Shown in pieces: positions 4,031 to 32,299 of a stretch of DNA of 64,000 nt. Each line of letters begins with the position of its first letter. The first letter of the stretch is position 1. Made by a program: the position numbers and the translations under genes. Origin of the DNA: Gammaproteobacteria bacterium (GTDB lineage: Bacteria; Pseudomonadota; Gammaproteobacteria; Ga0077536); the NCBI GenBank assembly GCA_965278995.1, contig OZ257136.1, positions 2,874,497 through 2,938,496 of the forward strand. Reading direction: 5' to 3'. The notes beneath the pieces are model-generated. The model was not told the DNA's origin, did no database searches, and saw nothing but the letters and a program-made list of their open reading frames with translations.

Positions 4031-4636
4031 TCAGACCGCCAACTTGCGGCGCGATGACCACAGGCCGACGATGGCAAGCGCCAGCAGACCAGCGGAGCCA
4101 GGCACCGGCACAACGCTGGTCTCGTTCAAACGCAGGTCGTCAACCAGAAAATGATTGCCGAAACCGAGCAGCAACTCGTCGATCGCGCCGCTCTGCGCCG
4201 CGAAGAATTTGAACGAACCGTTCAGCCCGGTGGCCACACTCCATACTTCCACGCCGTTATTGAAACCGCTCAACGTACCGAACAACTGATCCGGCCCACC
4301 CGACTCCGGTGGCAGGCTCCATACTTTCGCCCACAAGCCGTCAAACGTGAAGTCGGCACCGCCGTCGGCAGTGATGATGCCGATACCGCCATAGTTGTTC
4401 AGCAGCGTGAACTCGCCACTATGAGCGCCGAAAGGCCAGCTGGAGGAGCTGACCGTGTCAATCCAGTCGAGCCGGTTTTCGCCGCATGGACTGCAGGCGA
4501 AATTGAATCCGTAGTAGGAAGCCGGTATCGGCCCGACGGTGTTCGGACCTGATCCGGGAACGTCATCGAACGTGAGTATTGCAGCCTGCGTGTTGAGGGT
4601 CACGGCAGCAACTGCCAGCAGGAGTAAACGCTTCAT
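4031..4636 (-). CDS. Secreted protein with a PEP-CTERM-like (VPVP variant) C-terminal sorting domain
   Basis: There is a signal peptide MKRLLLLAVAAVTLNTQA. The C-terminus is VPVPGSAGLLALAIVGLWSSRRK, i.e. motif, transmembrane helix, then a basic cluster. Confidence 0.75.
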   Translation of the reverse strand: MKRLLLLAVAAVTLNTQAAILTFDDVPGSGPNTVGPIPASYYGFNFACSPCGENRLDWIDTVSSSSWPFGAHSGEFTLLNNYGGIGIITADGGADFTFDGLWAKVWSLPPESGGPDQLFGTLSGFNNGVEVWSVATGLNGSFKFFAAQSGAIDELLLGFGNHFLVDDLRLNETSVVPVPGSAGLLALAIVGLWSSRRKLAV

Positions 4637-4728
4637 CAGTGTCGGGCTCCATCAAAACTGCTTCCAGAAAAACTGGATGGGAGCAGTTTAGCGCAAGTAA
4701 AACCCGATAGAATTACAGGCCACAAACG

Positions 4729-7287
4729 TTAACACTCAGGCCCGCAAGCACTGTTCGCGGCGGTGGCGGATCGACAGCTGTCGCGCGCGCTGACACTGCG
4801 CGCCCCCCGCCGCCGAACCAACAGGCCGGCGGCGCTCAGCAACAGCCACGCAGCCCCTGGCAACGGCACTGCCTGCACACTCAAGCGCAGACTGGTACCG
4901 TCCTGATTGAGCAGAAAGTTCAAGCCGTCGATGTCGGGCAGTACGACGGCAGTGAAACTGCCGAGCAGACTACCCGCTTCGAACAACAGGAAATCCTGGC
5001 CCGACAACGCCGAAAAGCCGTCGATGAAGACGATGCTGAGTGTACCGCCCAGCGTCAGTTGTCCACCGACAGCCAAGCTGTCGTATTCGCTTCCGCGCGT
5101 AAGACCGGCGATCTCGAGGATGGTCTCATTGCTCGCCTCGAGCACGGCGTCCCCGGCTATCTCCAGCAAGACCGGACTGCTGCCTGGCGACAGTCCGCCT
5201 GCAAACAGACTCACACCGTTACCGTTGATACTGCCGTCGCCGGAATACTGACCGGCAAAGCGGATGTGGGCGGCGGCCTCGACCACGACCTCAGAACGAT
5301 TGACGAAGTTTCCGTTGACATCGAGCGCCTGCCCCGGCGTCACTTGCACCAGCCCATGGTTCTCGATATTGCCGGACAGCGTACCGCCACCTTCGAGGAG
5401 GCCGTTGTCGCCGACGTGCAGCCCTTCGATCGTGCCGAGGACGCCTGCGCCGAGCAGCAGGCGGACCTCGCCGTCACCGGTCCCAAGAGCCAGGGATTTC
5501 ACGGTCACATCCGCTGCCGGACCTCGGATGAGCGTATCGTTCAGAGGGCTCAGTGTGACGTCATGGACAGCGCCCGGGTCCAGCCCGAAACGCCAGTTGG
5601 CGTTGTCATTCCATTCGTGTTCGAGAGCAGGGTCCGGGATAGTCTCACGCCAGAACAATTCCGGTGACCACGCATTGATTGCATGAATACCGCTTTCGTA
5701 AGTCACTTCATAGGCGACGAGCCCGCTGTCGCTGAAACCGTTGGTTTGACCCTCCGGATCGTTGTTGAACGTAATATCGAAGACAATTTCGCCATTCAGA
5801 ATATCGCCTTCGCGGACGACCGTTGCGCGCTCGTTGCCGTCGGAGACCATCAGGATTTTTTGCAGCAGCGGGATCTCGCCTTCTTCCGTCTGTACGGTGC
5901 CGATATTGAGCTCGGCGATGAAAGCGGCCATGGCCGCATTGTTCAGCGCAGGATGCTCGAAAGACGCGAATATTCCGCTCTCGTAACTCTCACCGGTGCG
6001 GGCGACATGCTCGACGGAATCAGGCGAGGCGACAAAGATGCCGAATGGGTTCTCGTCGTCGGTATCGAACAGTTCGACGCGAAACGCGACCTGCTCGTTG
6101 TCGTTCAGTGCCGGGCGCGGCATGGCGCCGTTGTTGTTCTCGGCAAAGCGACCGTAGCGGGCGTCACCGGACGGGACCAGATCACCTTCGCGGACCAGCG
6201 CCATCAAATCGCCACCGGCACGCTTGAGAAAAATCGCGCTGTCATCGAGCGCGCTGCTGCCGGCGAGCGGGGTATCCGGCAGACCGTCCGTGTTACGGAG
6301 CAGTGCGCTGAACGCGACATCGCCATCGTTGTTGATGCGGAGCTGCGAAAACACGGCGAAATCTCCATCGCCGCCGGGGACATCATCGCCCTCCTCGGCC
6401 ACCTGCGAAATCGCGGTGCTGTTATCGGCAACACGATAGACCGCAGTATCCGACAGCGCCGGCGCACCGGCGAGCGTAGCGGAAAAGACCATGCCACCGT
6501 CGTTGTTCATATGCGGCGAGAACACGCCACTCAAGTTGCTGCCGTTGACATTATCTCCTTCGCGCACGATTTCGACCGTGCCGTTCTGACTATCGCGACG
6601 AAAGATGGCAGTGTCGTTTGCGGTACCGGCGGTGGTGTCGCTCAGCGCGGAAAAAAAGCCGACTTCGCCATGGGTCCCGACCCCGAACAGATTGATGCCA
6701 CCGAGATCGCGATATGCGCCGTCGCCGTTCGGCACGTCCTCGCCTTCGGCGCCAGCCAGATGGTAGTTATCGCCGGGCGCGCCGGCATCCTCTTCGACGA
6801 CAATCGCCGTGTTGCCACCGGCCAGCCCGCTGCGCACCGGGAGTTCGAAGGCGACGGTATTGAACGTTCCTGTGACACCCTGCACGACGTCGATCTGCGG
6901 ATCCTCGAGATAGACTGTCGTCAGAAACAAATCGCCGGCGGTCAATCCGGTGCCACTGGCATCGAGCTGGGAATCTTCACGCAGGATTTCCACAATCTGA
7001 TTGACTACCGCGCCAAACAGATCCGTCAGCTGAAAGCGATAGATGCCGCTGTTGTTCGTCGGCGCGACATTGGCACCGCTCTGCCGGGCATTGAACACGA
7101 CTGCGCCGGTGTTGTTGACACTTGGCTCGAGAAAATCGCTGAAGTCGACTCCCACCGACCCGGCAGAATCGCCGAAGCGCGCGATTTCGAACGTGTTGTC
7201 CTCAGCCAGTCCGAGTGCCGGAAGGCTGAGCAGGGCCAGTCCGCAGGCTACCCGACGGCCCCTGATCGAATGCTCGCGGTCGGCCAT
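4729..7287 (-). CDS. Large secreted repeat protein with a PEP-CTERM-like tail (VPLPGAAWLLLSAAGLLVRRRGAR). It contains recurring NN-D/N-G-x-V-AF-x-A-L units.
   Basis: The start is set at MADREHSIRGRRVACGLALLSLPALGLA, which has a signal peptide; the ORF track begins 92 codons upstream. At least nine NNDGxVAF-type repeats are visible. A sorting-domain-like C-terminus is followed by an unusual 22-aa tail. Confidence 0.7.
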   Translation of the reverse strand: MADREHSIRGRRVACGLALLSLPALGLAEDNTFEIARFGDSAGSVGVDFSDFLEPSVNNTGAVVFNARQSGANVAPTNNSGIYRFQLTDLFGAVVNQIVEILREDSQLDASGTGLTAGDLFLTTVYLEDPQIDVVQGVTGTFNTVAFELPVRSGLAGGNTAIVVEEDAGAPGDNYHLAGAEGEDVPNGDGAYRDLGGINLFGVGTHGEVGFFSALSDTTAGTANDTAIFRRDSQNGTVEIVREGDNVNGSNLSGVFSPHMNNDGGMVFSATLAGAPALSDTAVYRVADNSTAISQVAEEGDDVPGGDGDFAVFSQLRINNDGDVAFSALLRNTDGLPDTPLAGSSALDDSAIFLKRAGGDLMALVREGDLVPSGDARYGRFAENNNGAMPRPALNDNEQVAFRVELFDTDDENPFGIFVASPDSVEHVARTGESYESGIFASFEHPALNNAAMAAFIAELNIGTVQTEEGEIPLLQKILMVSDGNERATVVREGDILNGEIVFDITFNNDPEGQTNGFSDSGLVAYEVTYESGIHAINAWSPELFWRETIPDPALEHEWNDNANWRFGLDPGAVHDVTLSPLNDTLIRGPAADVTVKSLALGTGDGEVRLLLGAGVLGTIEGLHVGDNGLLEGGGTLSGNIENHGLVQVTPGQALDVNGNFVNRSEVVVEAAAHIRFAGQYSGDGSINGNGVSLFAGGLSPGSSPVLLEIAGDAVLEASNETILEIAGLTRGSEYDSLAVGGQLTLGGTLSIVFIDGFSALSGQDFLLFEAGSLLGSFTAVVLPDIDGLNFLLNQDGTSLRLSVQAVPLPGAAWLLLSAAGLLVRRRGARSVSARDSCRSATAANSACGPEC

Positions 7288-9145: not shown

Positions 9146-10312
9146 ATGAAGAAGCAGCGCGCGCCAGCAGGCACGCCGGCATTCGATATACCGCGTTTTT
9201 TGCGTGCCGACTGGCAACGCCGGCCGCGTTTACTCAAGCAGGCCTGGCCGCGCTGGCGCAACCCGCTGACACCCGATGAGCTGGCCGGCCTGGCCTGCGA
9301 ATCCGAGGTCGAATCGCGACTGATCCTGCGCGAGCGTCGACGCTGGCAGCTCGAGCATGGTCCGTTCGCAGCGGCGCGTTTCGATACGCTACCGGCACGC
9401 CGCTGGACATTGCTGGTACAGGCGGTGGACCACTACGTACCCGCGGTTGCCGCGCTGCTCGAAACGTTTCGCTTCATCCCCGACTGGCGCCTCGATGACA
9501 TCATGGTGAGCTACGCCACCGATGGCGGCGGTGTCGGTCCGCATTTCGATCATTACGATGTCTTTCTGCTGCAGGGTCTCGGTCGGCGACGTTGGCGAGT
9601 TGGTCAGCGCTGCACCGGCGCAACGCCACTGCAGCCGCATGCCGATATCCGCCTGCTGGCCGAATTCCAACCTGCAGAGGAGTGGGTCCTCGATCCTGGC
9701 GACATGCTTTATCTGCCACCAGGGTGGGCACACGATGGCGTCGCCATTGGCGATGACTGCATGACGTACTCCATCGGCTTGCGGGCACCGAGTCGGGCCG
9801 AACTCATCGGCCACTGGTGCGACGAAGTCATTGCCGGCCTCGACGAGGATGACCGCTATACAGATGCCGCCGGCCAGGAACACGCACCCCCTGGCGAGCT
9901 GACGCCGGCAACGCTGGCGCGCTTGCGAACGCTGGCCATGTCTGCGCTGAACGATGAAGCACGATTTGCCGACTGGTTCGGGCGCTACACGAGCGAACGC
10001 AAGTATGCCGAAAGTGCCGAGCCTCCGACCCGCCGATTGAGCGCAACCCAGCTGGCGCGTGCATTGGTCCGCGGTGCGGTGCTGGCGCGTGTTGCATCAA
10101 GCCGCTATGCCTTCATTCGCCACGGCCGCGGCTTGGCGCTATACGTCGACGGCGAGCGCTACACCTGCGCCGGCCGGGCCGCCCAGCTTGCTTTGCGACT
10201 CTGCGGCCAGGGCGAGCGCGAGCTGCATGCGGCGGACGTTCCTGCCGGTCCGGCACTCGCGCTTGCCGCGACGCTTCATGCGCGAGGCGCATTGGCGCTG
10301 ATTCGACCCTAG
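9146..10312 (+). CDS. JmjC/cupin-4 family oxygenase (RoxA/YcfD-like ribosomal protein hydroxylase)
   Basis: The cupin core HFDHYDVFLLQGLGRRRWRVG...LPPGWAHDGVAI is present, with a typical length. Confidence 0.65.
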   Translation: MKKQRAPAGTPAFDIPRFLRADWQRRPRLLKQAWPRWRNPLTPDELAGLACESEVESRLILRERRRWQLEHGPFAAARFDTLPARRWTLLVQAVDHYVPAVAALLETFRFIPDWRLDDIMVSYATDGGGVGPHFDHYDVFLLQGLGRRRWRVGQRCTGATPLQPHADIRLLAEFQPAEEWVLDPGDMLYLPPGWAHDGVAIGDDCMTYSIGLRAPSRAELIGHWCDEVIAGLDEDDRYTDAAGQEHAPPGELTPATLARLRTLAMSALNDEARFADWFGRYTSERKYAESAEPPTRRLSATQLARALVRGAVLARVASSRYAFIRHGRGLALYVDGERYTCAGRAAQLALRLCGQGERELHAADVPAGPALALAATLHARGALALIRP

Positions 10313-10392
10313 CAACCTGACGACCGGTCGATTGCACGAGGGCGTCCTCGCATTAGACAATCCTAGTTACGCCATCGGCATAGGGTAATCCC

Positions 10393-10869
10393 ATGAACCA
10401 AGCAACCTCGCCTGTCGCATTCGCGTCCGGCTACAAGACCGACGCCATCCAGTGGCAACGGATTGTCGGTACACCACGCTTCGACTATCCCATCGACTAC
10501 TGGGTTGCCGTGCTAGGAGTACAACCGGAAATCGGCCGCATCGAGTTCCTGAGTAAATGGGAACCGAATTCCTATTGCCACTATCACCGCCATCTCGGCC
10601 CGACCACGGTGCTGGTTCTCGAGGGCGAACATCACGTCATCGAAACCTCGGCCAACGAAACCGTGCACAAAGTGCGTCAGCCGGGTTTCTTTGCCACCAA
10701 CCCGGGCGGCGACGTCCACATGGAATTCGGTGGTCCACAAGGCGCGGTCGTGTTTTTCAGCTGCCAGGCATTGGAAGGCGGCAAACTGTTCGATGTGCTG
10801 GCCAGTAATGGCAAGGTGCTGGTCACGGCGACCATCGACGACTTCGTCAGTGGCAAACTGAAAGGCTGA
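10393..10869 (+). CDS. Cupin-domain protein of unknown function
   Basis: The HYHRHLGPTTVLVLEGEHHV beta-barrel motif is present; there is no further assignment. Confidence 0.45.
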   Translation: MNQATSPVAFASGYKTDAIQWQRIVGTPRFDYPIDYWVAVLGVQPEIGRIEFLSKWEPNSYCHYHRHLGPTTVLVLEGEHHVIETSANETVHKVRQPGFFATNPGGDVHMEFGGPQGAVVFFSCQALEGGKLFDVLASNGKVLVTATIDDFVSGKLKG

Positions 10870-12630: not shown

Positions 12631-14946
12631 GTGGAACTCACCGGCCATCAACCGCCCGCTGTCGACGACCCGGTCTTGCGCGATCCGGTCTGCGGCATGA
12701 GCGTGACGGATCAGTCGCCGCATCACCACGTGCATGAGACACGCGCGTTCAATTTCTGCAGTGCCGGCTGCAAAACGCGCTTTATCGCCGATCCATTGCG
12801 CTATCTCGCACCCGAAACGGTAGCGCGGGACGCTGCCGTGCAGCCGCCCGGCACGCGCTATACCTGCCCGATGCATCCGGAAATAATCACTGAGAAACCG
12901 GATGACTGCCCGCTCTGCGGCATGCGCCTCGAGCCGCTGCTGCCGGGTCTGGACGATGCCGCTGATCCCGAACTAGCCGACGTCGAGCGCCGCTTCCTGT
13001 GGAGTCTGCCGTTGACCTTGACCGTGGTCGCGCTGGCCATGTTCGGCCATCGATTCACAGGTATTGCGCCCGCACTGCAGTCCTGGCTCGAAGGACTGCT
13101 GGCTGCGCCGGTGGTGCTGTGGGCAGGTCAGCCGATCTTTACTCGCGCCTGGCGTTCGCTGCTCCAACGCAGCCCCAATATGTGGACCTTGATTGGTACC
13201 GGCACCAGCGCCGCATTCGTCTACAGCGTAGCTGCCACGTTGCGACCGGAGTGGTTCCCGGATATTTACGCCACGATGGGACGTATCGGTGTCTACTACG
13301 AGGCCGCCGCTGCCATCGTTTCGTTGACTCTGCTCGGGCAGATCCTTGAACTGCGCGCACGCGCGCGGACCGGCAGCGCATTGCGCAGCCTGTTAGGCCT
13401 CGCGCCTGAAACAGCAACACGTGTCACCGCCAGTGGAGATGAACTCGAAGTGCCGCTGGCTGAGGTGCAGCGCGGCGATCGATTGCGCGTCCGCCCCGGC
13501 GGCCGTGTGCCGGTCGATGGCCTGGTCATCGAAGGTCGCAGCGCGGTCGATGAATCGATGCTGACAGGCGAACCGCTGCCGGTCGTCAAATGCACCGGCG
13601 ATCGCGTCATTGGCGCGACCATGAACGTGGACGGCACGCTGATCATCGAAGCGACGAGTATCGGCATGGAAACGCTGCTCGCCCGCATCGTTGCCCAGGT
13701 CGCCGAGGCCCAGCGCTCGCGCGCGCCGTTGCAGCGCCTCGCCGATCAGGTCGCGCGTTACTTCGTGTTCGGCGTCGGCACTGTCGCTGTTGCCAGCTTG
13801 CTGGCGTGGGGTCTGTTTGGCCCGGAACCGGCCTGGACTCATGGCTATATCAATGCGATTGCGGTGCTGATCGTAGCCTGCCCCTGCGCTCTCGGTCTGG
13901 CAACGCCGATGTCAGTGATGGTCGCCACCGGGCGTGCGGCCAGCCATGGAATTCTGTTTCGCGATGCAGCGGCGCTCGAGCGTTTGCGCGACGTCGATAC
14001 GCTGGTCATCGACAAAACGGGGACCTTGACTGCGGGTCGCCCAAGCGTCGTACGAGTCGTGGCAATGGTGGGTACTTCAGAGAACGATGTGCTGCGACTC
14101 GCCGCCAGTCTCGAGCAGGGCAGCGAACACCCGCTAGCCGGTGCCATTGTCAACGCGGCGCGTGCGCGCGAACTCATCCTCAGTCGTCCGCTCACCTTCA
14201 CCGTCGAAGCTGGCGCAGGCGTCGAAGGTCGGGTTGGCAACCGGCGTTTGATGCTTGGCAGTCCGACCTACCTGGCTACCGCAGGCGTGGCTATCGATGT
14301 GGCCTCCCTCGATGCGACGACGCGCGTCGAGGGCAGCGAGAGCATCGTCTATCTGGCTGCCGACGGCGTGCTGCTTGGACGTATTGCGCTGGCCGACACT
14401 ATCAAATCCAGCACACCCGCTGCGCTGGCCTCCCTGAAGGCGGCGGGTCTGCGTGTGATTATGGCCAGTGGTGACGCCGAGGTCAGCGCGCAGGCTGTCG
14501 GCAGACAACTCGGTCTCGCCGAGATTCACGGCGGTATGTTGCCGCAACACAAGCGCACGCTCGTACAGCGACTGCAGAACGAAGGGCGCATCGTCGCTGT
14601 CGTCGGCGACGGCATCAACGATGCGCCCGCGCTCGCTCAAGCCGATGTCGGCATCGCCATGGGCACCGGCACCGATGTCGCCATGCACAGTGCTGCCATC
14701 ACCCTCGTTAAAGGCGACCTGCGCGGCATTGCGACCGCACGAGCACTGTCAGTTGCCGCCGTCACCAATATGCGCCAGAACCTCGCTTTCGCGCTGATCT
14801 ACAATGCTATCGGCATCCCTCTCGCCGCCGGCGTGTTGTATCCGTTCACCGGCTGGCTGCTGTCACCGATGTTTGCAGCGGCCGCGATGAGCCTCAGTTC
14901 GGCGTCAGTGATCACGAACGCACTGCGTTTGCGGACTGGACATTGA
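12631..14946 (+). CDS. copA: Copper-translocating P1B-type ATPase with an N-terminal TRASH/YHS-like domain plus a CxxC metal-binding domain
   Basis: Motifs present: [15 protein letters not shown]...CPLCGM, the TGEP actuator motif, the CPC transmembrane motif ([12 protein letters not shown]), DKTGTLT and GDGINDAP. The start codon is GTG. Confidence 0.9.
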
Positions 14947-14955
14947 TTGAGCGCC

Positions 14956-14990
14956 GGATACTGCGCGTTGCGTTTACAAGCGCAGTACCC
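14956..14990. other. Hairpin with a 10-bp stem (GGATACTGCGC / GCGCAGTACC) and a 13-nt loop, immediately after the copA stop. It is a possible terminator or operator but has no U-tract.
   Basis: Inverted repeat read directly in the sequence. Confidence 0.3.
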
Positions 14991-15035
14991 GGCAGTAGTC
15001 TCGGCTGAAGGTTACGGCTGGGGAGGCTCGCACCG

Positions 15036-16271: not shown

Positions 16272-16317
16272 CTGTTCCAGATTCCGGCTCTCGGTGGCAA
16301 TGCTTAATTGCGCTGTC

Positions 16318-18781: not shown

Positions 18782-18818
18782 TCTGACGTGTACCGATGCA
18801 GATGGCTACAGTCTGTGA

Positions 18819-21407: not shown

Positions 21408-21438
21408 GATGGAAGTCCGGTAGATAACCGGCCTGGCC

Positions 21439-22086: not shown

Positions 22087-22165
22087 TGTCTCTGAATATG
22101 CACCAGTGGCGGGAATAATCGGCAAAACGTTCGTCGATAGTGCAACCCGCAACAGCGTTTGCACG

Positions 22166-23113
22166 CTAGCTTAAAATTGCCGCAACTCGCAGCCACGACC
22201 AGTACGCCGCCAGAGAGCCGATACCGTATAACAACGGAAGGCGGCCGCGCTCGACCAGCGGCCACCGCCGAAGTGCGCGCCAGATTAGCCACGCTGTTGC
22301 TACTGCCAGCAGCTGCCCGATCTCGACACCGATGTTGAAGGTCAGCAATGCGGTTGGCAGATAGTTCTGCGGCAGGCCGACTTCCTTCAGTGCGCCAGCA
22401 AAGCCCAGACCATGCATCAGTCCGAAGAGGAACGCCACTGCGGCGGGCCAGCGTTTCGATAAAGACTGGCGCTGCTGCAAGGCCTCTGCGACGACCAGCA
22501 CTATCGAGAGCGCGATGGTGGCTTCCACCGGGGGCGACCGCAATGTCAGCCAGCCCAGAGCGGCACTTGCGAGCGTAAGGCTATGCGCCGCGGTGAACGC
22601 TGTGATGGTCCACACCAGTTGACGCCGGAAACCGACAAGTACCAACAGGCTGATGACAAACAGCAGGTGGTCGATTCCACCTAAGATATGTTCCACACCT
22701 AATACTGTGTACGCCGAAGCAATCTCACCTCTGCCGCGCCGATCGTCGGCAGAACCGTACAACCGTACCGTCGGCTGGCCCGCCGTCAACGTATAGACGT
22801 GTGATTTTCCGTCCAGCCAGAAGATTTTCACGAGTGCGGCAGAATAACGCTTGCCCACTCCTTTGATTGCCAGCATACCCTGCAGTCCGCCGTCGCCACA
22901 GCGCAGCACATTGGGCTCAGCGCGGCAGCCCTCGGGCCACATCGGCTTCAGATCCGCAATGGCTGCGCCTTTTTCGCTCGCCGTCCATTGCCACACGAAG
23001 GTGCCGTGCGACGTTTCGCGAAGCTGCATCTCGGCCATGCTCATTTCGTGCGCCGCCGCTACGCCGCTCAGCATGAATACCGCCAACAACGCGAAGCGGA
23101 GCAAACCGGTCAC
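22166..23113 (-). CDS. HupE/UreJ-family membrane protein with a ~140-aa N-terminal periplasmic domain
   Basis: There is a signal peptide. The motifs GIDHLLFVISLLVLVGF and LMHGLGFAGAL are typical of HupE/UreJ. Confidence 0.65.
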   Translation of the reverse strand: MTGLLRFALLAVFMLSGVAAAHEMSMAEMQLRETSHGTFVWQWTASEKGAAIADLKPMWPEGCRAEPNVLRCGDGGLQGMLAIKGVGKRYSAALVKIFWLDGKSHVYTLTAGQPTVRLYGSADDRRGRGEIASAYTVLGVEHILGGIDHLLFVISLLVLVGFRRQLVWTITAFTAAHSLTLASAALGWLTLRSPPVEATIALSIVLVVAEALQQRQSLSKRWPAAVAFLFGLMHGLGFAGALKEVGLPQNYLPTALLTFNIGVEIGQLLAVATAWLIWRALRRWPLVERGRLPLLYGIGSLAAYWSWLRVAAILS

Positions 23114-23982
23114 TTCGTGGCGGTCTCGGTTTTCACGTTGTACTTCTTAGCTAACGCGCGCACGGCAGCAGTGCGTTGTTCGGCCATAGTGGCGTCGGTC
23201 CAGTCCTGCAATACCACACCGCGCAGACGCTCGAATACTGCTGGCTTGGATGGAGTCATCAAATCAAGTCGGATCGCGCGCCACCCCTCACGCGTCGAAT
23301 ACGCTCGCCATTCGCCCGTCGGCGATTCTCCGAGCATCTTCGCGAATTCAAGGCCATAGCTCTCAGTGAGGTTCGCCTGCGGTCGCCCCTTGAAGACCCG
23401 CAACCCGGCCTCCGCCTCAGCCGGCGCTCCGGCATTCAGACTTTTGACAAAGGCGCGCACCGTCACTTCAGTGGCGTCGCCGGCGAGCACTGCCTCCTCG
23501 AAATCGTAGCGCGCTGGCTCGTCGTATTGAGTACGGCGTATTTCAAACCATTTGCGTAGGAGTTTGTCGTCGAATGGCGGCAGTTGGACATTCGCATCGA
23601 TGACACTGAGGGCCTTGAAGATTATCCGCTGCCGGATGGCATCATCGCCCTTGTCCACCTGCAGCGCCAACCCTTCACGATAAAGCACCTCATTGTCGAG
23701 CCAGACCTGCCGCAGCGCGTCCAATTCCGCCTTGGTGGGATCCCGGCCGCGCGAAGCCTTGAACACCTGCCTGGATTCCTTGTCGACGTCGGCGCCAATC
23801 ATGATCGTCTGCGGATCATCCACGCTTTCGAGCAAAAAGTGATCGAACGCGAACAGCAAGCCGCCCAGCACGATGAAATGGACGAGCGGCTCGCGCAGCC
23901 AGTTAGGCCAACGCATTTTGCGACGTACCACAGCGGTGTCGTTGAAGAGGGCAGTCGAGAGCGGAGTTGGCATGTTTGTCAT
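23110..23982 (-). CDS. Membrane-anchored hypothetical protein (single N-terminal transmembrane helix; SurA-N/PpiC-like region possible)
   Basis: It is translationally coupled to its neighbours: its stop overlaps the next start, and its start overlaps the upstream stop. The function is not established from sequence. Confidence 0.45.
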   Translation of the reverse strand: MTNMPTPLSTALFNDTAVVRRKMRWPNWLREPLVHFIVLGGLLFAFDHFLLESVDDPQTIMIGADVDKESRQVFKASRGRDPTKAELDALRQVWLDNEVLYREGLALQVDKGDDAIRQRIIFKALSVIDANVQLPPFDDKLLRKWFEIRRTQYDEPARYDFEEAVLAGDATEVTVRAFVKSLNAGAPAEAEAGLRVFKGRPQANLTESYGLEFAKMLGESPTGEWRAYSTREGWRAIRLDLMTPSKPAVFERLRGVVLQDWTDATMAEQRTAAVRALAKKYNVKTETATK

Positions 23983-24708
23983 TCACATCGTAAATGCGAG
24001 CTGGCAGGAAGTCCCGAAGCTGAAAATACCCGTGCGTCTATTCGGAGACGGCAGCAGGCGATCCCGGTCAGCGATCACCATCGCCAAACTGCGCATTCTC
24101 TCCTTGTGCAGCAATCTCAAACCAAAAACGATCAACATCGCCAGCAACGGTGCGGACGGTGCCAGCGGAATCTGACGCGTGCTTGCTCCACTTGCATCAG
24201 CAGTCACCACAAAATCCAGACCGTAGGAGGTCGGGCCGCCGGTCTCCTGCACCCACACGGAATACATACCGCTCGGATGCCCGGCGCCGAAGCCAATGGC
24301 AGGAAGAATGTCGGTACCGACATGCTCATAGCTGTAGTGAGCGAAACCCAGCAGATTCTCGACGCCTGCACCCGAGGGTGACACCGTAATCTGCGGGCCC
24401 GCTTGCAGGGCGATGAACGATGCGCCTCCCGATACGGTCGTGCTGCCCGCAAGAATGAGCGACGTCAGGCTCGATCCAGCAGGCACCGCGAACGTGAAAT
24501 AGTCGCGATCGACTCCCTGCCCGTTATTTCCCGTGGCACCGAGTACGCTATTCACGCCGGGCGTGACGACCAGCGCAGTGGGCGCCAGACCGTTATTGGA
24601 AAAATCACCGTCGCTGTCTTCGTTCCAGACGGTAACGCCGTGTGCCGCAAACGCTCCGCCCACGGCAAGCATCACTGCCAGAAGTTTCGTGCCAGGTCCC
24701 GGTTTCAT
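23983..24708 (-). CDS. Secreted PPC-like-domain protein with an internal PEP-CTERM-like segment (IPLAPSAPLLAMLIVFGLRLLHKER) followed by a ~40-aa extension
   Basis: There is a signal peptide MKPGPGTKLLAVMLAVGGAFAAHG. DRDYFTFAVPAGSSLTSLIL resembles a pre-peptidase C-terminal domain. The sorting-like segment is not at the extreme C-terminus. Confidence 0.5.
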   Translation of the reverse strand: MKPGPGTKLLAVMLAVGGAFAAHGVTVWNEDSDGDFSNNGLAPTALVVTPGVNSVLGATGNNGQGVDRDYFTFAVPAGSSLTSLILAGSTTVSGGASFIALQAGPQITVSPSGAGVENLLGFAHYSYEHVGTDILPAIGFGAGHPSGMYSVWVQETGGPTSYGLDFVVTADASGASTRQIPLAPSAPLLAMLIVFGLRLLHKERMRSLAMVIADRDRLLPSPNRRTGIFSFGTSCQLAFTM

Positions 24709-24780
24709 TGCAGATTGCTCCCAAGAGAAAGGCGCCGCGCGGATTCCGCGCGCCGCCTTTAGTAAGACGCGTGGGAGGGC

Positions 24781-27018
24781 TTACAACGCGCCGAGTATTA
24801 CCGTCCCACCCGTTACCTGGATGTAGATTGGGTTGCTGTAGAACCACAGATCAGCCCAGGCCGCCAGGTCGTTGGCCACATACTTCTGGCCACTGACGGT
24901 TGGCAAGTGTGCGGGGCAACCATCGATCGCTACGCCCGCGTACACCGTGCCGTTGGCGGGGACGGTGGTGCCGGTCACGGTACACGGGATCTTGAGGTTG
25001 GCCGTGTTGCTGGCGTTGGTATAGAGGTCCGGCAACGGGTTGCCGCTGGCATCGGTTTCGAACGGCACGGCAGCAGGCAGGTTAGTGCCGCGCAAGCGAA
25101 CGTACTGGGACGCCGAAACCGCAGGGATGCGGTAAGTCATCTTGAGGTACTGGGTGCCACCCGAACTAACTGCCACCCATGGCGTGGCGCCGTTACCGTT
25201 GAACGTCTTGATAACGGCGGCAGTCGTGTTCTTGGCCGCAGCCGGTACCGTCGCGATATTTGGATTGGCAAGCCAGGTGTTGGGCCAGGCGCCCGAATAA
25301 TCGGCCGTTCCCGGTGTCTTGTAGCCGGTTACCAGGCCCCGAATGACGTCGATGTGATCGAGTACAGGCGCGTTCACGGGCTGATTGACGCCGATTTGAG
25401 CCAACGACGGATTAGCGAAAACGTACGGTGAGTAGTTGGTCCCTGCCGGATCGCGTACGACGACCGACACCACGATTTCTGAACCTGCACGGACGGGGAG
25501 TTTCTCGCCCATCGTCGCGCAGCCGGCTTTATTGTCGATGCCCGTATTACCCGTCGCAGCGGCGATTGCCAGCGCTTCCACTGCCGCATTGGTACGGAAG
25601 GCTGCGCCCGGGTAGGACGCACAAGCAACGAATGCCAGGCGATCGATTAATTGTCCGTTGGCAGTGAAGCTGTTACCTGTGCGCAAGCCATCGACAATTG
25701 TTTGCGGTCTCAGCTTGTCGGCACCGTTGCGCACCATCGCGTAATCACGTTGATACTCACCGGGGTAGAAATCTTGCGTCGATCTGCGATCGTCGGGACT
25801 GAACACCCCGCGGTTGTGCCAGTCGGAACTTGCGAAGAACCAAAAGTTACGCCCTTCTCCGAGCAAGGCATCCCATACGCCACCGACGTAGGCGCCATAG
25901 ACACCGGTACCGCCATAGGTCGTGCCGCCAACGGAATCGACCAGGACGCCGCCTATGTTGTTCCGATTGGGCGAGTACTCGCCTCGATTATCTGAAGCGT
26001 GGTGACCCGGCTGCGTCTCCATGCCGAAAGCGACTTGCGGCGCGGCATTGTTGAAGTTGCGCAGATGCTCAATATTGAAGCCGTTGTTGCCGTCGGGATT
26101 GAACGGCCCGGCGCGTTCGAGGTGGGCAGGGACGTAGTAGCTTCCAGTCGGATGCTTCTCAACCATCCACTTCAATGCTTCGACTGTCTTGTTGTGTCCG
26201 CGCGTGCCGTTACCGGCGCCGCTGGCGGGTACAAGCTTCTTGGCGCTGTCGTTCCAGCTTGGATCGGCCACATTCAGGCTGCCAGTAACAGAGCAATCCC
26301 AGTTGTTGCCTTCACTCGTGCCGGTGGTGTTGCCACGGCTCGTGTCCGTGTCATTGCGGTCGAAGCAGTACTCCCACTGGGCCAATGCCGTAGCATTACC
26401 AAGACCGGTATAGCGAGAGCCGCTCGCGTTCGGTTCGGTCGGCAGAACAGCAGTATCCAGGGCCATCGGAATCTGGCCTGTAATGACAGCCATCGACGTG
26501 TGTTCATGCCCTGGCACAACCGTTTCGACACCGATGAACATCGGCTCGTTCTTCAGTGCGGCCAGATACTCGACGACGGGATACTGGAATTCCTGCACCG
26601 ACTGCCAGCGCCACATATTACGATTCACGCCGCTGCCAGAAACATTGCCCTTGACCGTAACGCCGCTGTTGACCCAGGTCGTTGTCGGCCCTGACCCGGC
26701 GATTAACGGATACGCCGGTGTGTCGAGCGTGGCGTCCTCGGTCAGTGTGCAGTTGCGATTGCCGCTGCCGCCGTGGCCCGCTTGCACGAACCAATCCAGG
26801 CCCCACGGGGTGTCCAACTGGTCGGTCGATTTTTTTATCAGCTTCTGCATCGAAATCGAGCCGTCCGAGCAGGTCGTATGGTTATGAAAGTCGCCCGCTA
26901 CGTATTTGCCTGGCGTCTTACCTGCTGCCTTCGTAACGGTAGGCGCGGTAGCCAGAGCGGTGGTGCCGATAGCCGCGACCGCCGCGAGGGCGATGTGGCG
27001 CTTGAATCCAGTTTTCAT
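24781..27018 (-). CDS. Large secreted PHP-domain metal-dependent phosphoesterase-like protein (745 aa)
   Basis: There is a signal peptide. PHP motifs present: GDFHNHTTCSDGS, PGHEHTS, QPGHHASD and SSDWHNRG. Confidence 0.65.
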   Translation of the reverse strand: MKTGFKRHIALAAVAAIGTTALATAPTVTKAAGKTPGKYVAGDFHNHTTCSDGSISMQKLIKKSTDQLDTPWGLDWFVQAGHGGSGNRNCTLTEDATLDTPAYPLIAGSGPTTTWVNSGVTVKGNVSGSGVNRNMWRWQSVQEFQYPVVEYLAALKNEPMFIGVETVVPGHEHTSMAVITGQIPMALDTAVLPTEPNASGSRYTGLGNATALAQWEYCFDRNDTDTSRGNTTGTSEGNNWDCSVTGSLNVADPSWNDSAKKLVPASGAGNGTRGHNKTVEALKWMVEKHPTGSYYVPAHLERAGPFNPDGNNGFNIEHLRNFNNAAPQVAFGMETQPGHHASDNRGEYSPNRNNIGGVLVDSVGGTTYGGTGVYGAYVGGVWDALLGEGRNFWFFASSDWHNRGVFSPDDRRSTQDFYPGEYQRDYAMVRNGADKLRPQTIVDGLRTGNSFTANGQLIDRLAFVACASYPGAAFRTNAAVEALAIAAATGNTGIDNKAGCATMGEKLPVRAGSEIVVSVVVRDPAGTNYSPYVFANPSLAQIGVNQPVNAPVLDHIDVIRGLVTGYKTPGTADYSGAWPNTWLANPNIATVPAAAKNTTAAVIKTFNGNGATPWVAVSSGGTQYLKMTYRIPAVSASQYVRLRGTNLPAAVPFETDASGNPLPDLYTNASNTANLKIPCTVTGTTVPANGTVYAGVAIDGCPAHLPTVSGQKYVANDLAAWADLWFYSNPIYIQVTGGTVILGAL

Positions 27019-27077
27019 CGAGCCTGCTCCTGTGTGGGTGTTGAGATTGAGAGCGACGAAGAGCCTATCGATTCACG

Positions 27078-27104
27078 GTGACATCGATATGACATATCGG
27101 TGAC
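27078..27104. promoter_or_regulatory. Three direct TGACA repeats spaced 10-12 bp apart (TGACAtcgatATGACAtatcggTGACA), upstream of divergent secreted-protein genes. This is a candidate regulator binding site.
   Basis: Read directly in the sequence; the repeats are phased by about one helical turn. Confidence 0.3.
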
Positions 27105-27260
27105 ACGGCGAGACTGTTTGGCTGGCGACTATCCGATGCAATGGAAGGCCGATGTGTTTCATCGGCTTGTAATACACACGAGAGAATATCCACTCGCACA
27201 CTCGGGCGTCGCGCGTGCGGAATACAAATTATCAATCAGCACTCTGACAGGATACTCACT

Positions 27261-27893
27261 ATGAAACTCAGCCGACTCTTTGCAGTGGCCACTTTGAGCG
27301 CTATGGCTGCCAGCCCAACTTTCGCCGCACAGTTCACTGTTGATTTCGAGAAGAACTGGGACTATCTCGACGGCGACATCAACGGCTACTACAATGGCGG
27401 TACCGCGGCTGACGGAACAACCGGTGCCAATCTCGGCGTTTCATTCGTGGGCGTATCAGGCTTATCCAACGATCTCGACTTCACTTACTACACCGGGGCT
27501 CCATCGCCGCAGGGCACAGCATATGCCCACACGTTCGCGCCTGAAGACCTTGCATTCATGAACGTCGCAGCCGGTGTCGACAACGCGCTCTCGTTCTATT
27601 ATTCGAGCCCGGGCGATGCGCTCGGCGCAGTGAAAGCCTACTCCGGCTTGAATGGCACAGGCACACTGTTGGGCACGCTAGATCTGGCGGCAAATACCAC
27701 TGGTGGCTACGACGTATGGACACTCGTGACGTTCGCGTTCACCGGCACCGCCCTGTCGTTTGATCTCACTGGCAGTGCCAATCTGGTCGGCCTGGACGAT
27801 ATCAGCGCGGTCCCGGTGCCGCCGGCACTGGTCCTGCTGGCTTCTGCCCTGCTCGGCATTCCGGCAGTACGCCAACGGATCAACCGGACGTAG
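27261..27893 (+). CDS. Secreted PEP-CTERM-like (VPVP variant) protein
   Basis: There is a signal peptide MKLSRLFAVATLSAMAASPTFA. The C-terminus is AVPVPPALVLLASALLGIPAVRQRINRT. Confidence 0.75.
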   Translation: MKLSRLFAVATLSAMAASPTFAAQFTVDFEKNWDYLDGDINGYYNGGTAADGTTGANLGVSFVGVSGLSNDLDFTYYTGAPSPQGTAYAHTFAPEDLAFMNVAAGVDNALSFYYSSPGDALGAVKAYSGLNGTGTLLGTLDLAANTTGGYDVWTLVTFAFTGTALSFDLTGSANLVGLDDISAVPVPPALVLLASALLGIPAVRQRINRT

Positions 27894-28016
27894 CCCACCT
27901 ACTCTCAGGCCATGAGAACACCGGCGGAACTGCGGACTGCGTCACCTGCACGTGACGTAGTCCGCAAGTAGCTGCAATTCGGATATTGAATCGGGTGGTA
28001 AATGACGGCGGATGTT

Positions 28017-28982
28017 CTAAACAAACTGCAGCATGACTTCAGCAAGGTGATGAAGCGCGTCGCCCATGACAACAATCTGAATCAGCAAAGCGACCGCAAG
28101 CACGCTCATTGCATGGCTGGTTTTCCAGCTTCGCCATTCCGGTCGTTGCAGGGCGCAGGTTCGCGCGCCAGCATTCAGTGCGTCGAATGTCGCCGAGCCA
28201 ACATTACCTTGAGCCAGCCGCCAACGCGTCATCGCCTCAATCGTAGACACAACCATCCCCACGTCCCCAGTTGCGCGCGAGACCGCATAGTCACACGACT
28301 GTTCGGCGGCAAGGTGCAGTTCGGCGAGCAAGCGCCCACGTCCTGCTGCTGGCCACGTGAGGCTCGCGGTGCTTGCCAGCAGGTTACGTAAATTGTCACC
28401 GCGATAGCAATGCGCGCGTTCATGTAACAGGATGACCTCAACCTGAGCGGGAGTGGCGTGTTCCAGTAACCCGCGCGACAGCAGGATGGTCGGCTTCAAC
28501 ACGCCGATACAGCAAGCGAGCAGGGTATCACTGTCGAGTACCCTGAACGATTTTCCCGTTACAGGTCGCGCCATCCACGTCAGCATGCTGGCGCTACGCG
28601 CACTGCGCCAGATCGCAGCGCTGGTGATTGCAATCGCGGCAAGCAGTAGTGTTGCAACTATCCATGGGATTGCATGCGCCACCGATTCGGAGACTTCCAA
28701 TATCGGCACGTGTCCGCCGCAGGCCTTGCCATGACAATGACTATCGACGATCAGCGTACTCAAGCCCGGCGCAAATACGATGAGCGTAATAACGACAGCA
28801 AGCGTCATTGGATACAGCGCGTAGCAGAACAGATAGAACGACCGTTGAGCAGGGACCAAAGGTCGCATTTTCCTCACGATCCAAGGCACCGCCAGCGCCG
28901 CCAAGCCGCTCAACAGGTACCACAAAGCGAAGAACGCCAGCACGGGTAGTACTACGGGTTCAGCGATCAGCGAGGCGTGCAT
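28017..28982 (-). CDS. BlaR1/MecR1-family M56 peptidase signal transducer (anti-repressor)
   Basis: It has multiple transmembrane helices and the zinc motif HERAHCYRGD (HExxH). Confidence 0.8.
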   Translation of the reverse strand: MHASLIAEPVVLPVLAFFALWYLLSGLAALAVPWIVRKMRPLVPAQRSFYLFCYALYPMTLAVVITLIVFAPGLSTLIVDSHCHGKACGGHVPILEVSESVAHAIPWIVATLLLAAIAITSAAIWRSARSASMLTWMARPVTGKSFRVLDSDTLLACCIGVLKPTILLSRGLLEHATPAQVEVILLHERAHCYRGDNLRNLLASTASLTWPAAGRGRLLAELHLAAEQSCDYAVSRATGDVGMVVSTIEAMTRWRLAQGNVGSATFDALNAGARTCALQRPEWRSWKTSHAMSVLAVALLIQIVVMGDALHHLAEVMLQFV

Positions 28983-28983
28983 A

Positions 28984-29388
28984 TCATTTGACCTCGAGAT
29001 GCGCGCGCAGTGTGTCCAGCATGGCCCGCGCTTTATCGGGTTCGAGTTCGTCGACGAGATTCAGGAACCCGCTGAGCAGCGGCTCGATTCGCCCAGTCGC
29101 AAGGTCCTGCGAAAGATCGTTCATCAAGAGGGTAATTAACGCGGTCCGGTCGAGTTTCGTTACGTACTCAAATGCGCGCCTCTGCTTTTGTCGAGTGAGC
29201 AAATTCTTGCGCGTCAACCGTTCTAACGTCGATTGCACGGTGCTGAGCGTTATATCGCGCGGGTGCAGTGCGTCGAGTACCTCACGCGCAGTCAGTCGTT
29301 CATGGCGCCACGCCAGCTCCATTACCTCGATCTCGAGTTGTCCAAGGCGCGGCGCCCGACTCCGCCGTCGCATCCCTATGAAGTTCAT
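28984..29388 (-). CDS. BlaI/MecI/CopY-family transcriptional repressor
   Basis: It has a winged-helix N-terminus (LGQLEIEVMELAWRHERLTAREVLDAL) and is coupled to the downstream BlaR1-like gene. Confidence 0.8.
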   Translation of the reverse strand: MNFIGMRRRSRAPRLGQLEIEVMELAWRHERLTAREVLDALHPRDITLSTVQSTLERLTRKNLLTRQKQRRAFEYVTKLDRTALITLLMNDLSQDLATGRIEPLLSGFLNLVDELEPDKARAMLDTLRAHLEVK

Positions 29389-29526
29389 GAATTACCGTCT
29401 CGTTACAGTGGCGTTCAAAGTTCGAGGATTAATCGGTTTTCAGGAACGATGCTAAAACAGCACTGTTACAGCAATTACCGCAAGGACCCTGCATGCCTAT
29501 CGCCAACATCATTCGACCGTGTCGCC

Positions 29527-31653
29527 GCATTGCAGTCGCAACTCATGACTAAGGTACGGAAAATCCCGATGCCTGGTACCCAGCATAGAATACATCTGTA
29601 TTTGCAGACTATCCTCTTTGCAGCCGCGTCACCATTGGCGCTGGCCCACGATGCGAGCGATGACGAGATCGTCGTGACCGGGCGCGCGCAGGCTCTGACC
29701 GGCATCGCGAGCAGTGCGGCACAAGGCCTCATCGGTGCGCGCGATCTGGCATCGCGTCCTATCCTGCGCTCGGGCGAGTTGCTTGAAGTGGTGCCCGGTG
29801 CGGCAGTGACTCAACACTCCGGCACCGGCAAGGCAAATCAATATTTTTTGCGCGGCTTCAATCTCGACCATGGTACCGATTTCGCCGGCTTTCTCGATGG
29901 CGTGCCGCTCAACATGCCGACGCATGGCCATGGCCAGGGTTATCTCGATCTGAATCCCATCATTCCCGAGCTGGTCGACGGTATCGCCTATGGCAAAGGA
30001 CCCTACTACGCGGATGTCGGCGATTTCTCCTCGGCCGGTTATGCGCGCTACAGCCTCGCCACACATCTGCATGATCGGCTGCTCGAAGTCGGCGTCGGCG
30101 AGGACGGCTACTATCGCGGAGTCACGGCAGGTTCCAACGCCGTCGCTGCCGGCGAAGTACTGTACGGCTTCGAAGCACAACATTATGACGGGCCGTGGAC
30201 GAAGGAAGAAAATGCGCACAAGCTGAACGGGCTGCTCAAATACGCTCAGGCGTTCGAGGGGCACCTGCTCGACTTGACTCTGATGGCCTACGACGCCAAC
30301 TGGGACGCCACGGATCAGGTGCCCTCGCGCGCGATAGCCGATAAGCGGATTTCCCGTCTCGGCAACATCGACCCGACTCTGGGCGGCAGCAGCACGCGGT
30401 ACAGCGCGAACCTGAGTCTGGCCGGCGGCGACGACGTGCTCGGTTACAAGGCCAATGCCTACGCCGTGTATAGCGACTTCAGCCTGTTCTCGAACTTCAC
30501 GTATTTTCTCGATGATCCGATCAACGGCGATCAGATCACGCAGGCCGATCGGCGCTGGATCACCGGTCTCAATACGGCCTGGACCGGCAGTCACGACATC
30601 CTCGGACTGGCCTCGCGGACAACACTCGGTGCGCAGCTTCGCCACGACCGTATCCTCGATGTCGCGCTGGGTCGGAGCCAGGACCGCCGATTGCTCTCGA
30701 CCGTACGCGACGATCAGGCATCTGAGACCGGCCTCGGCTTTTATCTCTCGAACGAGACCCACCTGACCGATTGGCTGCGCAGCATCGTCGGCCTGCGCGG
30801 CGACCACTACTGGTTCGATGTCACCAGCAGCGCCGCGCAGAATTCAGGCACGGCGACCGACACGCTGGTCAGCCCGAAAGTCAGCGTGGTGCTTGGGCCC
30901 TGGGCCGCCAATGAATTTTATCTCAACTTCGGCCGCGGCTTTCACAGCAACGATGCGCGCGGCACGGTCACGCGCGTCGATCCCGTGACCGGCGATCCGG
31001 CATTACCGGTCTCGCCGCTGGTCCGTTCCGATGGTGCCGAGATCGGCTGGCGCTCGACCGCCATCGCCGGTCTGCAGACGACAGTCGGCGTGTGGTATCT
31101 CGAACTCGATTCGGAGCTTCTGTTCGTCGGTGATGCCGGCAGTACCGAACCTTCGGGTTCGTCGCGCCGCTACGGTGTGGAGTGGAGCAATTTCTATCGC
31201 GCGACCGACTGGCTGACGCTCGATCTGGACGTTGCCTTGACGCAGTCGAAATACCGCAAGGTCGAGGAACACGAAATCCCGAATTCGGTTGGTCGCGTGA
31301 TCACCGCGGGTGCCGTGGTCGATTGGCCGCTGGGATTCTTCGGCTCATTGCGCCTGCGCCATTTCGGCGACAGCCCGCTGATCGAAGACAGTCGCGCCCA
31401 CGCCGAACCGACGACCGTGGTCAATTTACGCGGCGGTTGGCATTGGACGCGGCAGATGGATATCGCGCTCGAAGTGTTCAACCTCTTCGATTCGCACGAT
31501 GCCGATATCAGCTATTTCTTTGCGTCCTGTCTACCGAGCGATCCGGCCGCACAATGTGGCGCCGGCCTGCCGGAACGCGAGGGCGTGGAAGATCTTCACC
31601 TGCATCCCGTCGAACCACGAACTATCCGCGCGACCTTGAGCCTGCGCTTCTGA
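29527..31653 (+). CDS. TonB-dependent outer-membrane receptor
   Basis: It has a signal peptide, a plug domain (DEIVVTGRAQ), barrel motifs and a C-terminal aromatic residue. The start is set at MTKVRKIPMPG. Confidence 0.85.
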   Translation, partial: ALQSQLMTKVRKIPMPGTQHRIHLYLQTILFAAASPLALAHDASDDEIVVTGRAQALTGIASSAAQGLIGARDLASRPILRSGELLEVVPGAAVTQHSGTGKANQYFLRGFNLDHGTDFAGFLDGVPLNMPTHGHGQGYLDLNPIIPELVDGIAYGKGPYYADVGDFSSAGYARYSLATHLHDRLLEVGVGEDGYYRGVTAGSNAVAAGEVLYGFEAQHYDGPWTKEENAHKLNGLLKYAQAFEGHLLDLTLMAYDANWDATDQVPSRAIADKRISRLGNIDPTLGGSSTRYSANLSLAGGDDVLGYKANAYAVYSDFSLFSNFTYFLDDPINGDQITQADRRWITGLNTAWTGSHDILGLASRTTLGAQLRHDRILDVALGRSQDRRLLSTVRDDQASETGLGFYLSNETHLTDWLRSIVGLRGDHYWFDVTSSAAQNSGTATDTLVSPKVSVVLGPWAANEFYLNFGRGFHSNDARGTVTRVDPVTGDPALPVSPLVRSDGAEIGWRSTAIAGLQTTVGVWYLELDSELLFVGDAGSTEPSGSSRRYGVEWSNFYRATDWLTLDLDVALTQSKYRKVEEHEIPNSVGRVITAGAVVDWPLGFFGSLRLRHFGDSPLIEDSRAHAEPTTVVNLRGGWHWTRQMDIALEVFNLFDSHDADISYFFASCLPSDPAAQCGAGLPEREGVEDLHLHPVEPRTIRATLSLRF

Positions 31654-32299
31654 ACGGGCACTGACACAGCGCAGCGAATCCAGTCAGCAACAGGAACCAG
31701 CCACCGGGCACGGGCACGCTCGAAACCGCTTCGTCGACGACAATGTTGTCGAACTGAAGGGCCGCCGACCAGTTCGGCTGAAAGACATCGAGATTGAGTG
31801 CCTGAAAACTGAACGACAACAGACCGACGCGATCAAAGAGCAGGGTTTCCAGCCCCGGCGCACCGTCGGTCAGGGTGACAATCTGCTGCGTTGAACCGCC
31901 GCCGGTGTTGAACGTGAATCGATAACTTGGAAAGATGGGATAACTGAGCCCCTGGTAGTACACCGGTGTGCTGTTCAACACATCAGCTGCATCGAGGCTG
32001 TTCAAGGTGAACGTTCCACCGCCGACTTTGGCAACCGTCGTAATCGCCCCGTTCAATCCCTGTGCGAGCGTATTGTTGCCGGGACCGCCGGCGTTTTCCG
32101 GGTTGTCGTTGGCCCAGATGATATAGAAGCTGCCGGGCTGACCGACGTCAGTGAAGGTGAATCCGCCGTAAGTGAATGGTGACGGACGACTGCCGGTAAA
32201 CGCTGGCAGATGCGGCAGATTTTCGAAATCGATGACGCTCGCGTTAACAGGCGTCACCGCGCAGATTCCGAGTAGCGCCACGAGAGTTGTCAGTCGCAT
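31622..32299 (-). CDS. Secreted PEP-CTERM-like (VPVP variant) protein
   Basis: There is a signal peptide MRLTTLVALLGICAVTPVNA. The C-terminus is SSVPVPGGWFLLLTGFAALCQCPFRSAGSRSRG. Confidence 0.6.
   Translation of the reverse strand: MRLTTLVALLGICAVTPVNASVIDFENLPHLPAFTGSRPSPFTYGGFTFTDVGQPGSFYIIWANDNPENAGGPGNNTLAQGLNGAITTVAKVGGGTFTLNSLDAADVLNSTPVYYQGLSYPIFPSYRFTFNTGGGSTQQIVTLTDGAPGLETLLFDRVGLLSFSFQALNLDVFQPNWSAALQFDNIVVDEAVSSVPVPGGWFLLLTGFAALCQCPFRSAGSRSRG

Follow-up and report, generated by a model that had tools for sequence, protein, structure and literature searches.

Can several secreted proteins encoded close to one another share a C-terminal sorting signal if none of them contains the PEP tripeptide of the known PEP-CTERM signal? 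The question is raised by a 64,000-nucleotide stretch of the contig OZ257136.1 (hereafter “the window”, which means the whole stretch analysed), where a first-pass annotation noticed five secreted proteins with a variant PEP-CTERM-like tag of the form VP[VL]P. We believe it quite probable that these five proteins (P1 to P5) are exported by Sec, carry a VPLPA-like signal of the PEP-CTERM type without Glu, and would be processed by an exosortase; the cleavage part is proposed by analogy. An exosortase-family enzyme of VPLPA-like specificity likely has P1, P2, P4 and P5 as its substrates, and P3 is a degenerate case.

The gene of P1 (201 amino acids, secreted) occupies positions 4031-4636 on the minus strand; its tag VPVPGSAGLLALAIVGLWSSRRK is encoded at 4043-4111 and is followed by 3 residues. 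P2, an NxxGxxAF “choice-of-anchor” repeat protein (4729-7287, minus strand), adjoins P1 and lies directly upstream of it on the same strand; its tag VPLPGAAWLLLSAAGLLVRRRGAR at 4798-4869 is followed by 22 residues, and the database copy of the protein has 852 amino acids and the N-terminus MADREH. The secreted protein P3 (241 amino acids; 23983-24708, minus strand) has a degenerate tag IPLAPSAPLLAMLIVFGLRLLHKER at 24097-24171 with 37 residues after it. P4 (210 amino acids, secreted) is encoded on the plus strand at 27261-27893, with the tag VPVPPALVLLASALLGIPAVRQR at 27810-27878 and 4 residues after it; position 27261, to which the first-pass annotation assigned the C-terminus, is actually the start codon. 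In P5 (225 amino acids, secreted; 31622-32299, minus strand) the tag VPVPGGWFLLLTGFAALCQCPFRSAGSRSRG at 31625-31717 is the end of the protein.

The sequences of the five C-termini are as they were originally spelled. A plausible Sec signal peptide can be read directly from the sequence of each protein (MKRLLLLAVAAVTLNTQAA, ...RGRRVACGLALLSLPALGLAED, MKPGPGTKLLAVMLAVGGAFAAHG, MKLSRLFAVATLSAMAASPTFAAQ and MRLTTLVALLGICAVTPVNASV). The motifs from P1 to P5 are VPVP, VPLP, IPLAP, VPVP and VPVP; the PEP tripeptide is indeed missing from every tag. V-P-[VL]-P is found in four of the five, with G, G, P and G in the fifth position. The motif, a helix of about 14 residues, the C-terminal basic cluster and the signal peptide are all in place in P1, P4 and P5; P2 and P3 fit this tripartite layout except for the tails of 22 and 37 residues and for the Arg within the helix of P3. 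The description of the five tags as VP[VL]P, a helix and a basic cluster is valid for P1, P2, P4 and P5; P3 is degenerate and does not fit VP[VL]P (IPLAP, an Arg-interrupted helix and a weak HKER cluster), and the tags of P2 and P3 are not the extreme C-termini that they had been taken for.

The bodies of P1, P4 and P5 cannot be aligned with one another, the alignment being confined to the tags. Five tagged proteins with unrelated bodies are encoded within 32 kb, and tags shared by unrelated bodies fit a modular sorting signal. A relaxed tripartite pattern was applied to the six-frame stop-to-stop open reading frames (ORFs) of at least 60 amino acids (n = 553); it matched P1 to P5 and no other ORF, with zero matches in the 32.3-64 kb half. 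When the last 70 residues of each ORF were shuffled (200 shuffles), the mean number of matches was 0.88 and the maximum was 4. Five matches against 0.88 confirm the observation of the five tags as one not due to chance.

Comparison with homologues settles the nature of the tags, which occupy the position of the PEP-CTERM domain. Orthologues of P4 were found in nine genomes (53-72% identity). The C-terminus is intact in eight of them, and in seven of these eight it consists of SAVPEA or SAVPEP followed by a helix and RRR; the orthologue from a Methylomonas metagenome-assembled genome (MAG) has a VPVP-type end VPVPAAFWLLGSGL, i.e., SSVPVPAAFWLLGSGL...RR. Both orthologues of P3 (loci L008 and L010; Uliginosibacterium and Roseateles) have SAVPEP, a helix and RR right after the conserved YGLD. 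The family of P1 includes 204 representatives at E <= 0.001; among the best 150 of the 204, a recognisable tag is present in 126, including 73 with PEP, 9 with PEx and 28 with P[VLI]P; among the latter, VP[VLI]PAAxWLFGSGL is frequent. Canonical VPEP or VPEA is thus present at the same place in most members of the P1 family as well as in orthologues of P3 and P4, which bears out the PEP-CTERM-like position and architecture originally proposed. The two orthologues of P5 both have VPLPA, a helix and RR. A VP[LVI]P tag is present in all 12 of the 12 orthologues of P2 (39-70% identity), several of which read VPLPA. In the alignment of 13 P2 orthologues V807, P808 and P810 are invariant; the helix is variable, and only two of its columns are near-invariant. 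With the motif invariant over a variable helix, V-P-x-P is evidently under constraint in these sequences. The distant homologues of P2 (at most 30% identity) have VPEP (one with a match to PF07589) or other anchors, e.g., dockerin.

All tags found in the betaproteobacterial loci are of the form [VA]PE[PA]. By our account all tags are VP[VL]P in three other places: the window (P3 with its IPLAP apart), the Methylomonas locus and the contig of a relative (L011). The latter contig (352 kb) encodes at 18491-19147 a secreted protein of 218 amino acids without a family match, which ends in VPVPAAIWLMLGGLVTFIKIATRPQR; its tag VPVPAAIWLML... has the flavour of the window, and its body is unrelated. 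The flavour of the tag tracks the genome and not the protein family. P4, with VPE[AP] in Burkholderiales versus VPVP here and in the Methylomonas MAG, presents a clean case of such tracking, which is the expected pattern if substrates co-evolve with the sortase. Unrelated proteins that converge on one motif, together with a motif that is invariant over a drifting helix, are predicted by a genome-specific sorting enzyme; neither decay nor chance predicts them.

The scores against curated models are less straightforward. The cutoffs are 16 bits for PEP-CTERM (TIGR02595), 20.7 for PF07589, 25.35 for VPLPA-CTERM (TIGR03370), 80 for NF038120, 50 for TIGR05002 and 20 for MYXO-CTERM. The whole P1 protein scores 15.2 bits with TIGR02595 and 15.2 bits with PF07589, under both cutoffs; its isolated tag scores 20.3 bits with TIGR02595, above 16, and is the sole isolated tag to pass PEP-CTERM. 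For the isolated tags of P4 and P5, VPLPA-CTERM is the best tag model, with 12.8 bits for P4 (which also has 22.6 bits with the PepA tail) and 14.8 bits for P5 (11.3 bits for the whole protein); the values for P5 are below 25.35. The whole proteins P2, P3 and P4 have no tag match to the PEP-CTERM and VPLPA-CTERM models, and VPLPA-CTERM gives no match for P1, P2 and P3, either as whole proteins or as isolated tags; the isolated tag of P2 has only weak matches to MYXO-CTERM and the PepA tail. The proposed check of the tags with the hidden Markov models of PEP-CTERM and VPLPA-CTERM therefore largely fails: only P1 passes PEP-CTERM, as an isolated peptide, and P2 and P3 have no usable match. As to the likeness to VPLPA-type variants, it holds in that no tag model is nearer to P4 and P5 than VPLPA-CTERM, and it does not hold in that no tag reaches the TIGR03370 cutoff. 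Two tags of the P1 family that served as positive controls reach 38.2 and 33.7 bits with VPLPA-CTERM; since the one with 38.2 bits is a textbook tag (VPVPAAVWLFGSGL...), P[VLI]P tags form a recognised class. The top-scoring models are always those of exosortase substrates, namely PEP-CTERM, VPLPA-CTERM and the tails of PEP-CTERM families.

The bodies of two proteins match models of their own. The body of P2 scores 142.5 bits with TIGR05002 over six repeats, which passes 50, and 148.7 bits with PF24251. The homologues of this TIGR05002 protein in our comparison have VP[LVI]P, VPEP or a dockerin domain at the end; the name “choice-of-anchor” implies that the members have differing C-terminal anchors. 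The body of P5 scores 29.5 bits (E = 6e-7) with NF038120 (PEP_CTERM_QFxxD), residues 21-215 being aligned with positions 2-210 of the 215 in the model, i.e., nearly with the full model, and QFDN is kept just before the tag. At 29.5 bits versus the cutoff of 80, P5 is a homologue of NF038120 but a distant relative outside the family.

Among the known sorting systems, the window tags resemble VPLPA-CTERM (TIGR03370) with its exosortase XrtD in that V-P-[LVI]-P stands in place of PEP, with a helix and then an Arg cluster after it, and in that Trp is often found 3-4 residues past the motif (GAAW in P2, GGW in P5). They differ from it in the score (10-15 bits vs 25.35), in the fifth residue, which is Gly or Pro and not Ala, and in the helices, which lack WLFGSGLxGL. 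With PEP-CTERM (TIGR02595/PF07589; XrtA/XrtB, the EpsH family) they share the tripartite layout combined with a signal peptide at the N-terminus and the occurrence of several copies per genome on unrelated, mostly domain-poor proteins; canonical members include most homologues of P1 as well as the orthologues of P3 and P4, and P1 itself is less than 1 bit short of the cutoff. The differences from PEP-CTERM consist in the motif without Glu, the scores below cutoff in four of the five, the lack of sigma-54 sites upstream and the two long tails. LPXTG with sortase A, GlyGly-CTERM with rhombosortase and MYXO-CTERM with myxosortase are similar in having a short signature, a helix, a basic cluster and a dedicated membrane enzyme; however, their motifs and enzymes are different, and no such model reaches its cutoff. 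ZepA is a PEP-CTERM zinc exoprotein with the motif H-X2-9-H-[FY]-H (PMC10957091); the tagged proteins were rejected as ZepA, this motif being present in none of the five.

A number of observations weigh against the proposed signal and its processing. The near-invariant Glu of PEP is present in none of the five tags. P2 and P3 run on for 22 and 37 residues beyond the basic cluster, this cluster is dilute in P5 (RSAGSRSRG), and P3 combines a charged residue inside the helix with a weak cluster and with zero model matches for its isolated tag. Four of the five window tags are under every curated cutoff, and so are under cutoff seven of the nine tags of P2 orthologues. Most proteobacterial PEP-CTERM genes have a sigma-54 site and a PEP-CTERM box upstream (PMC1569441); our search of the 300 nucleotides upstream of each tagged gene for a -24/-12 site (GG-N10-GC that matches the consensus at more than 6 of 12 positions) found none. 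Family scans of the submitted genes revealed no exopolysaccharide (EPS) gene and no regulator of the PrsK/PrsR type in the 64 kb. The unfiltered search of all six-frame ORFs of the window with a profile of 120 XrtB sequences had a best E of 3.7, the XrtB control from locus L002 being recovered at 7e-155. Finally, in a search of 5.8 billion proteins seeded with the XrtB of L002 the source contig (5,706,739 bp) is absent among the best 120 of 5,655 matches; these 120 all have at least 64% identity, so the result says nothing on exosortases below about 64%.

The first-pass annotation had stated that the window contains no exosortase gene, and the profile search and the family scans agree with it: the Pfam and NCBIfam scans of the submitted window genes found no exosortase, although some genes, among them the putative TadB/TadC ORFs (54435-56216), were outside those scans. 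On the long contigs with P2 orthologues there is no exosortase within 10 kb of those genes, and the metagenome search with the P2 alignment produced one 1.7-kb locus only. We infer that an exosortase is encoded elsewhere in this genome because PEP-CTERM domains are reported to co-occur with EpsH homologues (Haft et al. 2006, PMC1569441). In one of the loci compared, that of a Rhizobacter MAG (L002), an XrtB exosortase with EpsD/F/G is found 6.4 kb from the P4 orthologue. The region 12796-17255 of this locus encodes exosortase B (353 bits) together with an EpsD-type peptidyl-prolyl isomerase (PPIase) and a chain-length determinant/tyrosine kinase in which EpsF and EpsG are fused, these genes being 3-7 kb downstream of the P4 orthologue; a further PEP-CTERM protein is encoded there at 9675-10802.

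By analogy with PEP-CTERM and exosortase, the following mechanism can be proposed. Sec would export the five proteins, and the tripartite C-terminal signal would then hold them in the inner membrane, with VP[VL]P on the periplasmic face, a helix of about 14-18 residues and the basic cluster in the cytoplasm. A transpeptidase of the exosortase family, encoded outside the window, would recognise the motif and cut there, after which the mature protein may be released or re-anchored at the cell surface.

The position of P3 in this scheme is special. Compared with its orthologues, it has a 10-residue insertion and then IPLAP instead of VPEP. Its frame continues for 37 codons past the basic cluster to the TGA at 23983-23985, which abuts the ATG (23982) of a PPIase-like gene; the 37-residue tail looks like the read-through of a former intergenic spacer. 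A frameshift that masks a canonical tag in P3 or P2 was ruled out, the other frames being without one. The P3 tag is probably impaired or a mere anchor, and is possibly non-functional.

It might be argued that the tags as a whole are orphan or decaying, i.e., that the genome has no exosortase and the C-termini are mere anchors or are being lost, perhaps after horizontal acquisition from bearers of an exosortase. The scores below threshold for all models are compatible with this, as are the features of P3 (the insertion, the charged helix residue and the read-through tail), the 22-residue tail of P2, which is missing from most of its orthologues, the location of P3 and P4 in a block of lower guanine-cytosine (GC) content that is 57-75% identical to Burkholderiales loci, and the lack of a visible exosortase in the window or among the best 120 XrtB matches. 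However, four unrelated proteins whose closest homologues elsewhere have VPE[APT] would not all be brought to VP[VL]P by random decay; nor does decay agree with V-P-x-P being invariant across 13 P2 orthologues or with the same flavour on an unrelated protein of the relative’s contig. We consider the orphan tags improbable. Chance alone, i.e., Pro-rich, hydrophobic and basic C-termini arising in a GC-rich genome, has in our opinion a negligible probability. A mean of 0.88 shuffled matches per window allows a lone weak case such as P3 to be accidental; but the five matches all belong to genuine secreted proteins, about 500 spurious ORFs gave none, and the conservation of the tags in orthologues refutes chance for P1, P2, P4 and P5.

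The signal may also be real and served by an enzyme other than an exosortase, such as a rhombosortase, a protease of the CPBP/CAAX type, a myxosortase-like enzyme or the M56/M48-like peptidase encoded at 28017-28982; this appears very improbable. P1, P2 and some P2 orthologues do match MYXO-CTERM (15.5-19.8 bits, cutoff 20) and Synerg-CTERM weakly, and the gene of the M56-family membrane peptidase lies between the tagged genes P4 and P5. Yet the MYXO-CTERM and Synerg-CTERM matches span the helix and the Arg cluster only, and the invariant Cys that MYXO-CTERM needs (PMC11980579) is not in the motif region of the window tags. A bona fide PEP-CTERM is found at the same position in the orthologues, and the M56 gene with its partner, the gene of a BlaI/CopY-type repressor (28984-29388), is missing from orthologous loci that keep the tagged proteins. 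An M56 peptidase and a repressor of the BlaI/CopY type make up a usual signalling pair. The peptidase was rejected as the sorting enzyme because it is paired with such a repressor. It is tempting to propose, instead, a distinct class of signal without a model, used by this organism and its poorly sampled relatives: V-P-[VLI]-P-[GAP], often with W at +3/+4, a Leu-rich helix and RRR, served by a dedicated exosortase subtype which is neither XrtA/B nor XrtD and to which the transferred PEP-CTERM proteins P4 and P3 were retuned. The lineage with the orthologues of P2 and P5 is represented solely by metagenome assemblies. A VPLPA signal without Glu and with its own exosortase is already catalogued, since NCBIfam includes TIGR04152, “VPLPA-CTERM-specific exosortase XrtD”, and we regard the distinct class as rather doubtful.

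Our preference remains with exosortase processing of a VPLPA-like signal. The tags work like PEP-CTERM and VPLPA-CTERM, yet by the curated criteria they are formal members of neither model; they represent a known sorting system in a flavour specific to the lineage, mostly missed by current models. With Glu-less signals of the VPLPA type and XrtD already catalogued, no new mechanism is opened here. The practical consequence is that annotation by cutoffs leaves four of the five window proteins and most P2 orthologues without a sorting-domain label. The curated cutoffs miss these tags, and surface proteins of the lineage are therefore under-called, which a lineage-tuned model would cure.

P3 and P4 belong to a conserved gene block, which is context and lies outside the sorting signal proper. 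The part at 18819-27018 (minus strand), identified by family matches and collinear in the loci L002-L010, carries P3 and faces P4; together with P4 on the opposite strand, the seven genes occupy 18819-27893. The other products of the block are a secreted protein of 745 amino acids, the PPIase-like protein, HupE_UreJ_2, a 2OG-Fe(II) oxygenase (TIGR02466) and a protein of 930 amino acids with multiple transmembrane segments and a spermidine-synthase-like domain. The seven genes keep this order, with an amino-acid identity of 57-75%, in Rhizobacter, Roseateles, Paucibacter, MAGs of other Burkholderiales, Uliginosibacterium and the Methylomonas MAG (L002-L010). The GC content of the block is 0.58-0.59 compared with 0.61-0.63 on both flanks. 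Collinearity in these genomes and the slightly lower GC suggest that the block moved horizontally and that the tag was retuned to the flavour of the host. A metal-related role of the block is possible. The protein of 745 amino acids has only a weak CehA/McbA PHP-like match, and a PDB sequence search found no relative of it.

In the divergent promoter region between the gene of the latter protein and P4 there is a perfect palindrome CGATATG-A-CATATCG (CGATATGACATATCG) at 27085-27099. It was rejected as a conserved operator, being missing from the matching regions of L002-L010, and it has no significant repetition elsewhere in the window. On the other side of P4, a TonB-dependent receptor gene (29233-31653) adjoins P5 and the BlaI/M56 pair; in L007 and L009, too, the P4 orthologue is followed by a receptor, of 48% identity.

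The rest of the window can be described briefly. Rfam and tRNA scans of the window found nothing. A transposase of the IS110 family (47919-49238) is located within the part of the window with the lowest GC (0.555, 48-52 kb). A Tad/Flp pilus locus occupies 53027-62367 on the minus strand; its genes encode a TadE-like protein, a TPR protein, two proteins with multiple transmembrane segments (probably TadB/TadC), an FHA-CpaF ATPase and a secretin, and its RcpC/CpaB is unusually long (649 amino acids) and has DUF3659 repeats. A 7.8-kb metagenome contig (L001; ENA ERZ25074310) encodes a short-chain dehydrogenase/reductase (SDR) identical to that at 45010-45786 of the window, and the neighbours of this SDR, a GGDEF/EAL protein and GFA, are the same as at 42.3-45.8 kb of the window; the sample ERZ25074310 therefore contains this organism or one very closely related to it. 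The relative’s contig L011, which carries a P2 orthologue, originates from the ENA sample ERZ25072999.

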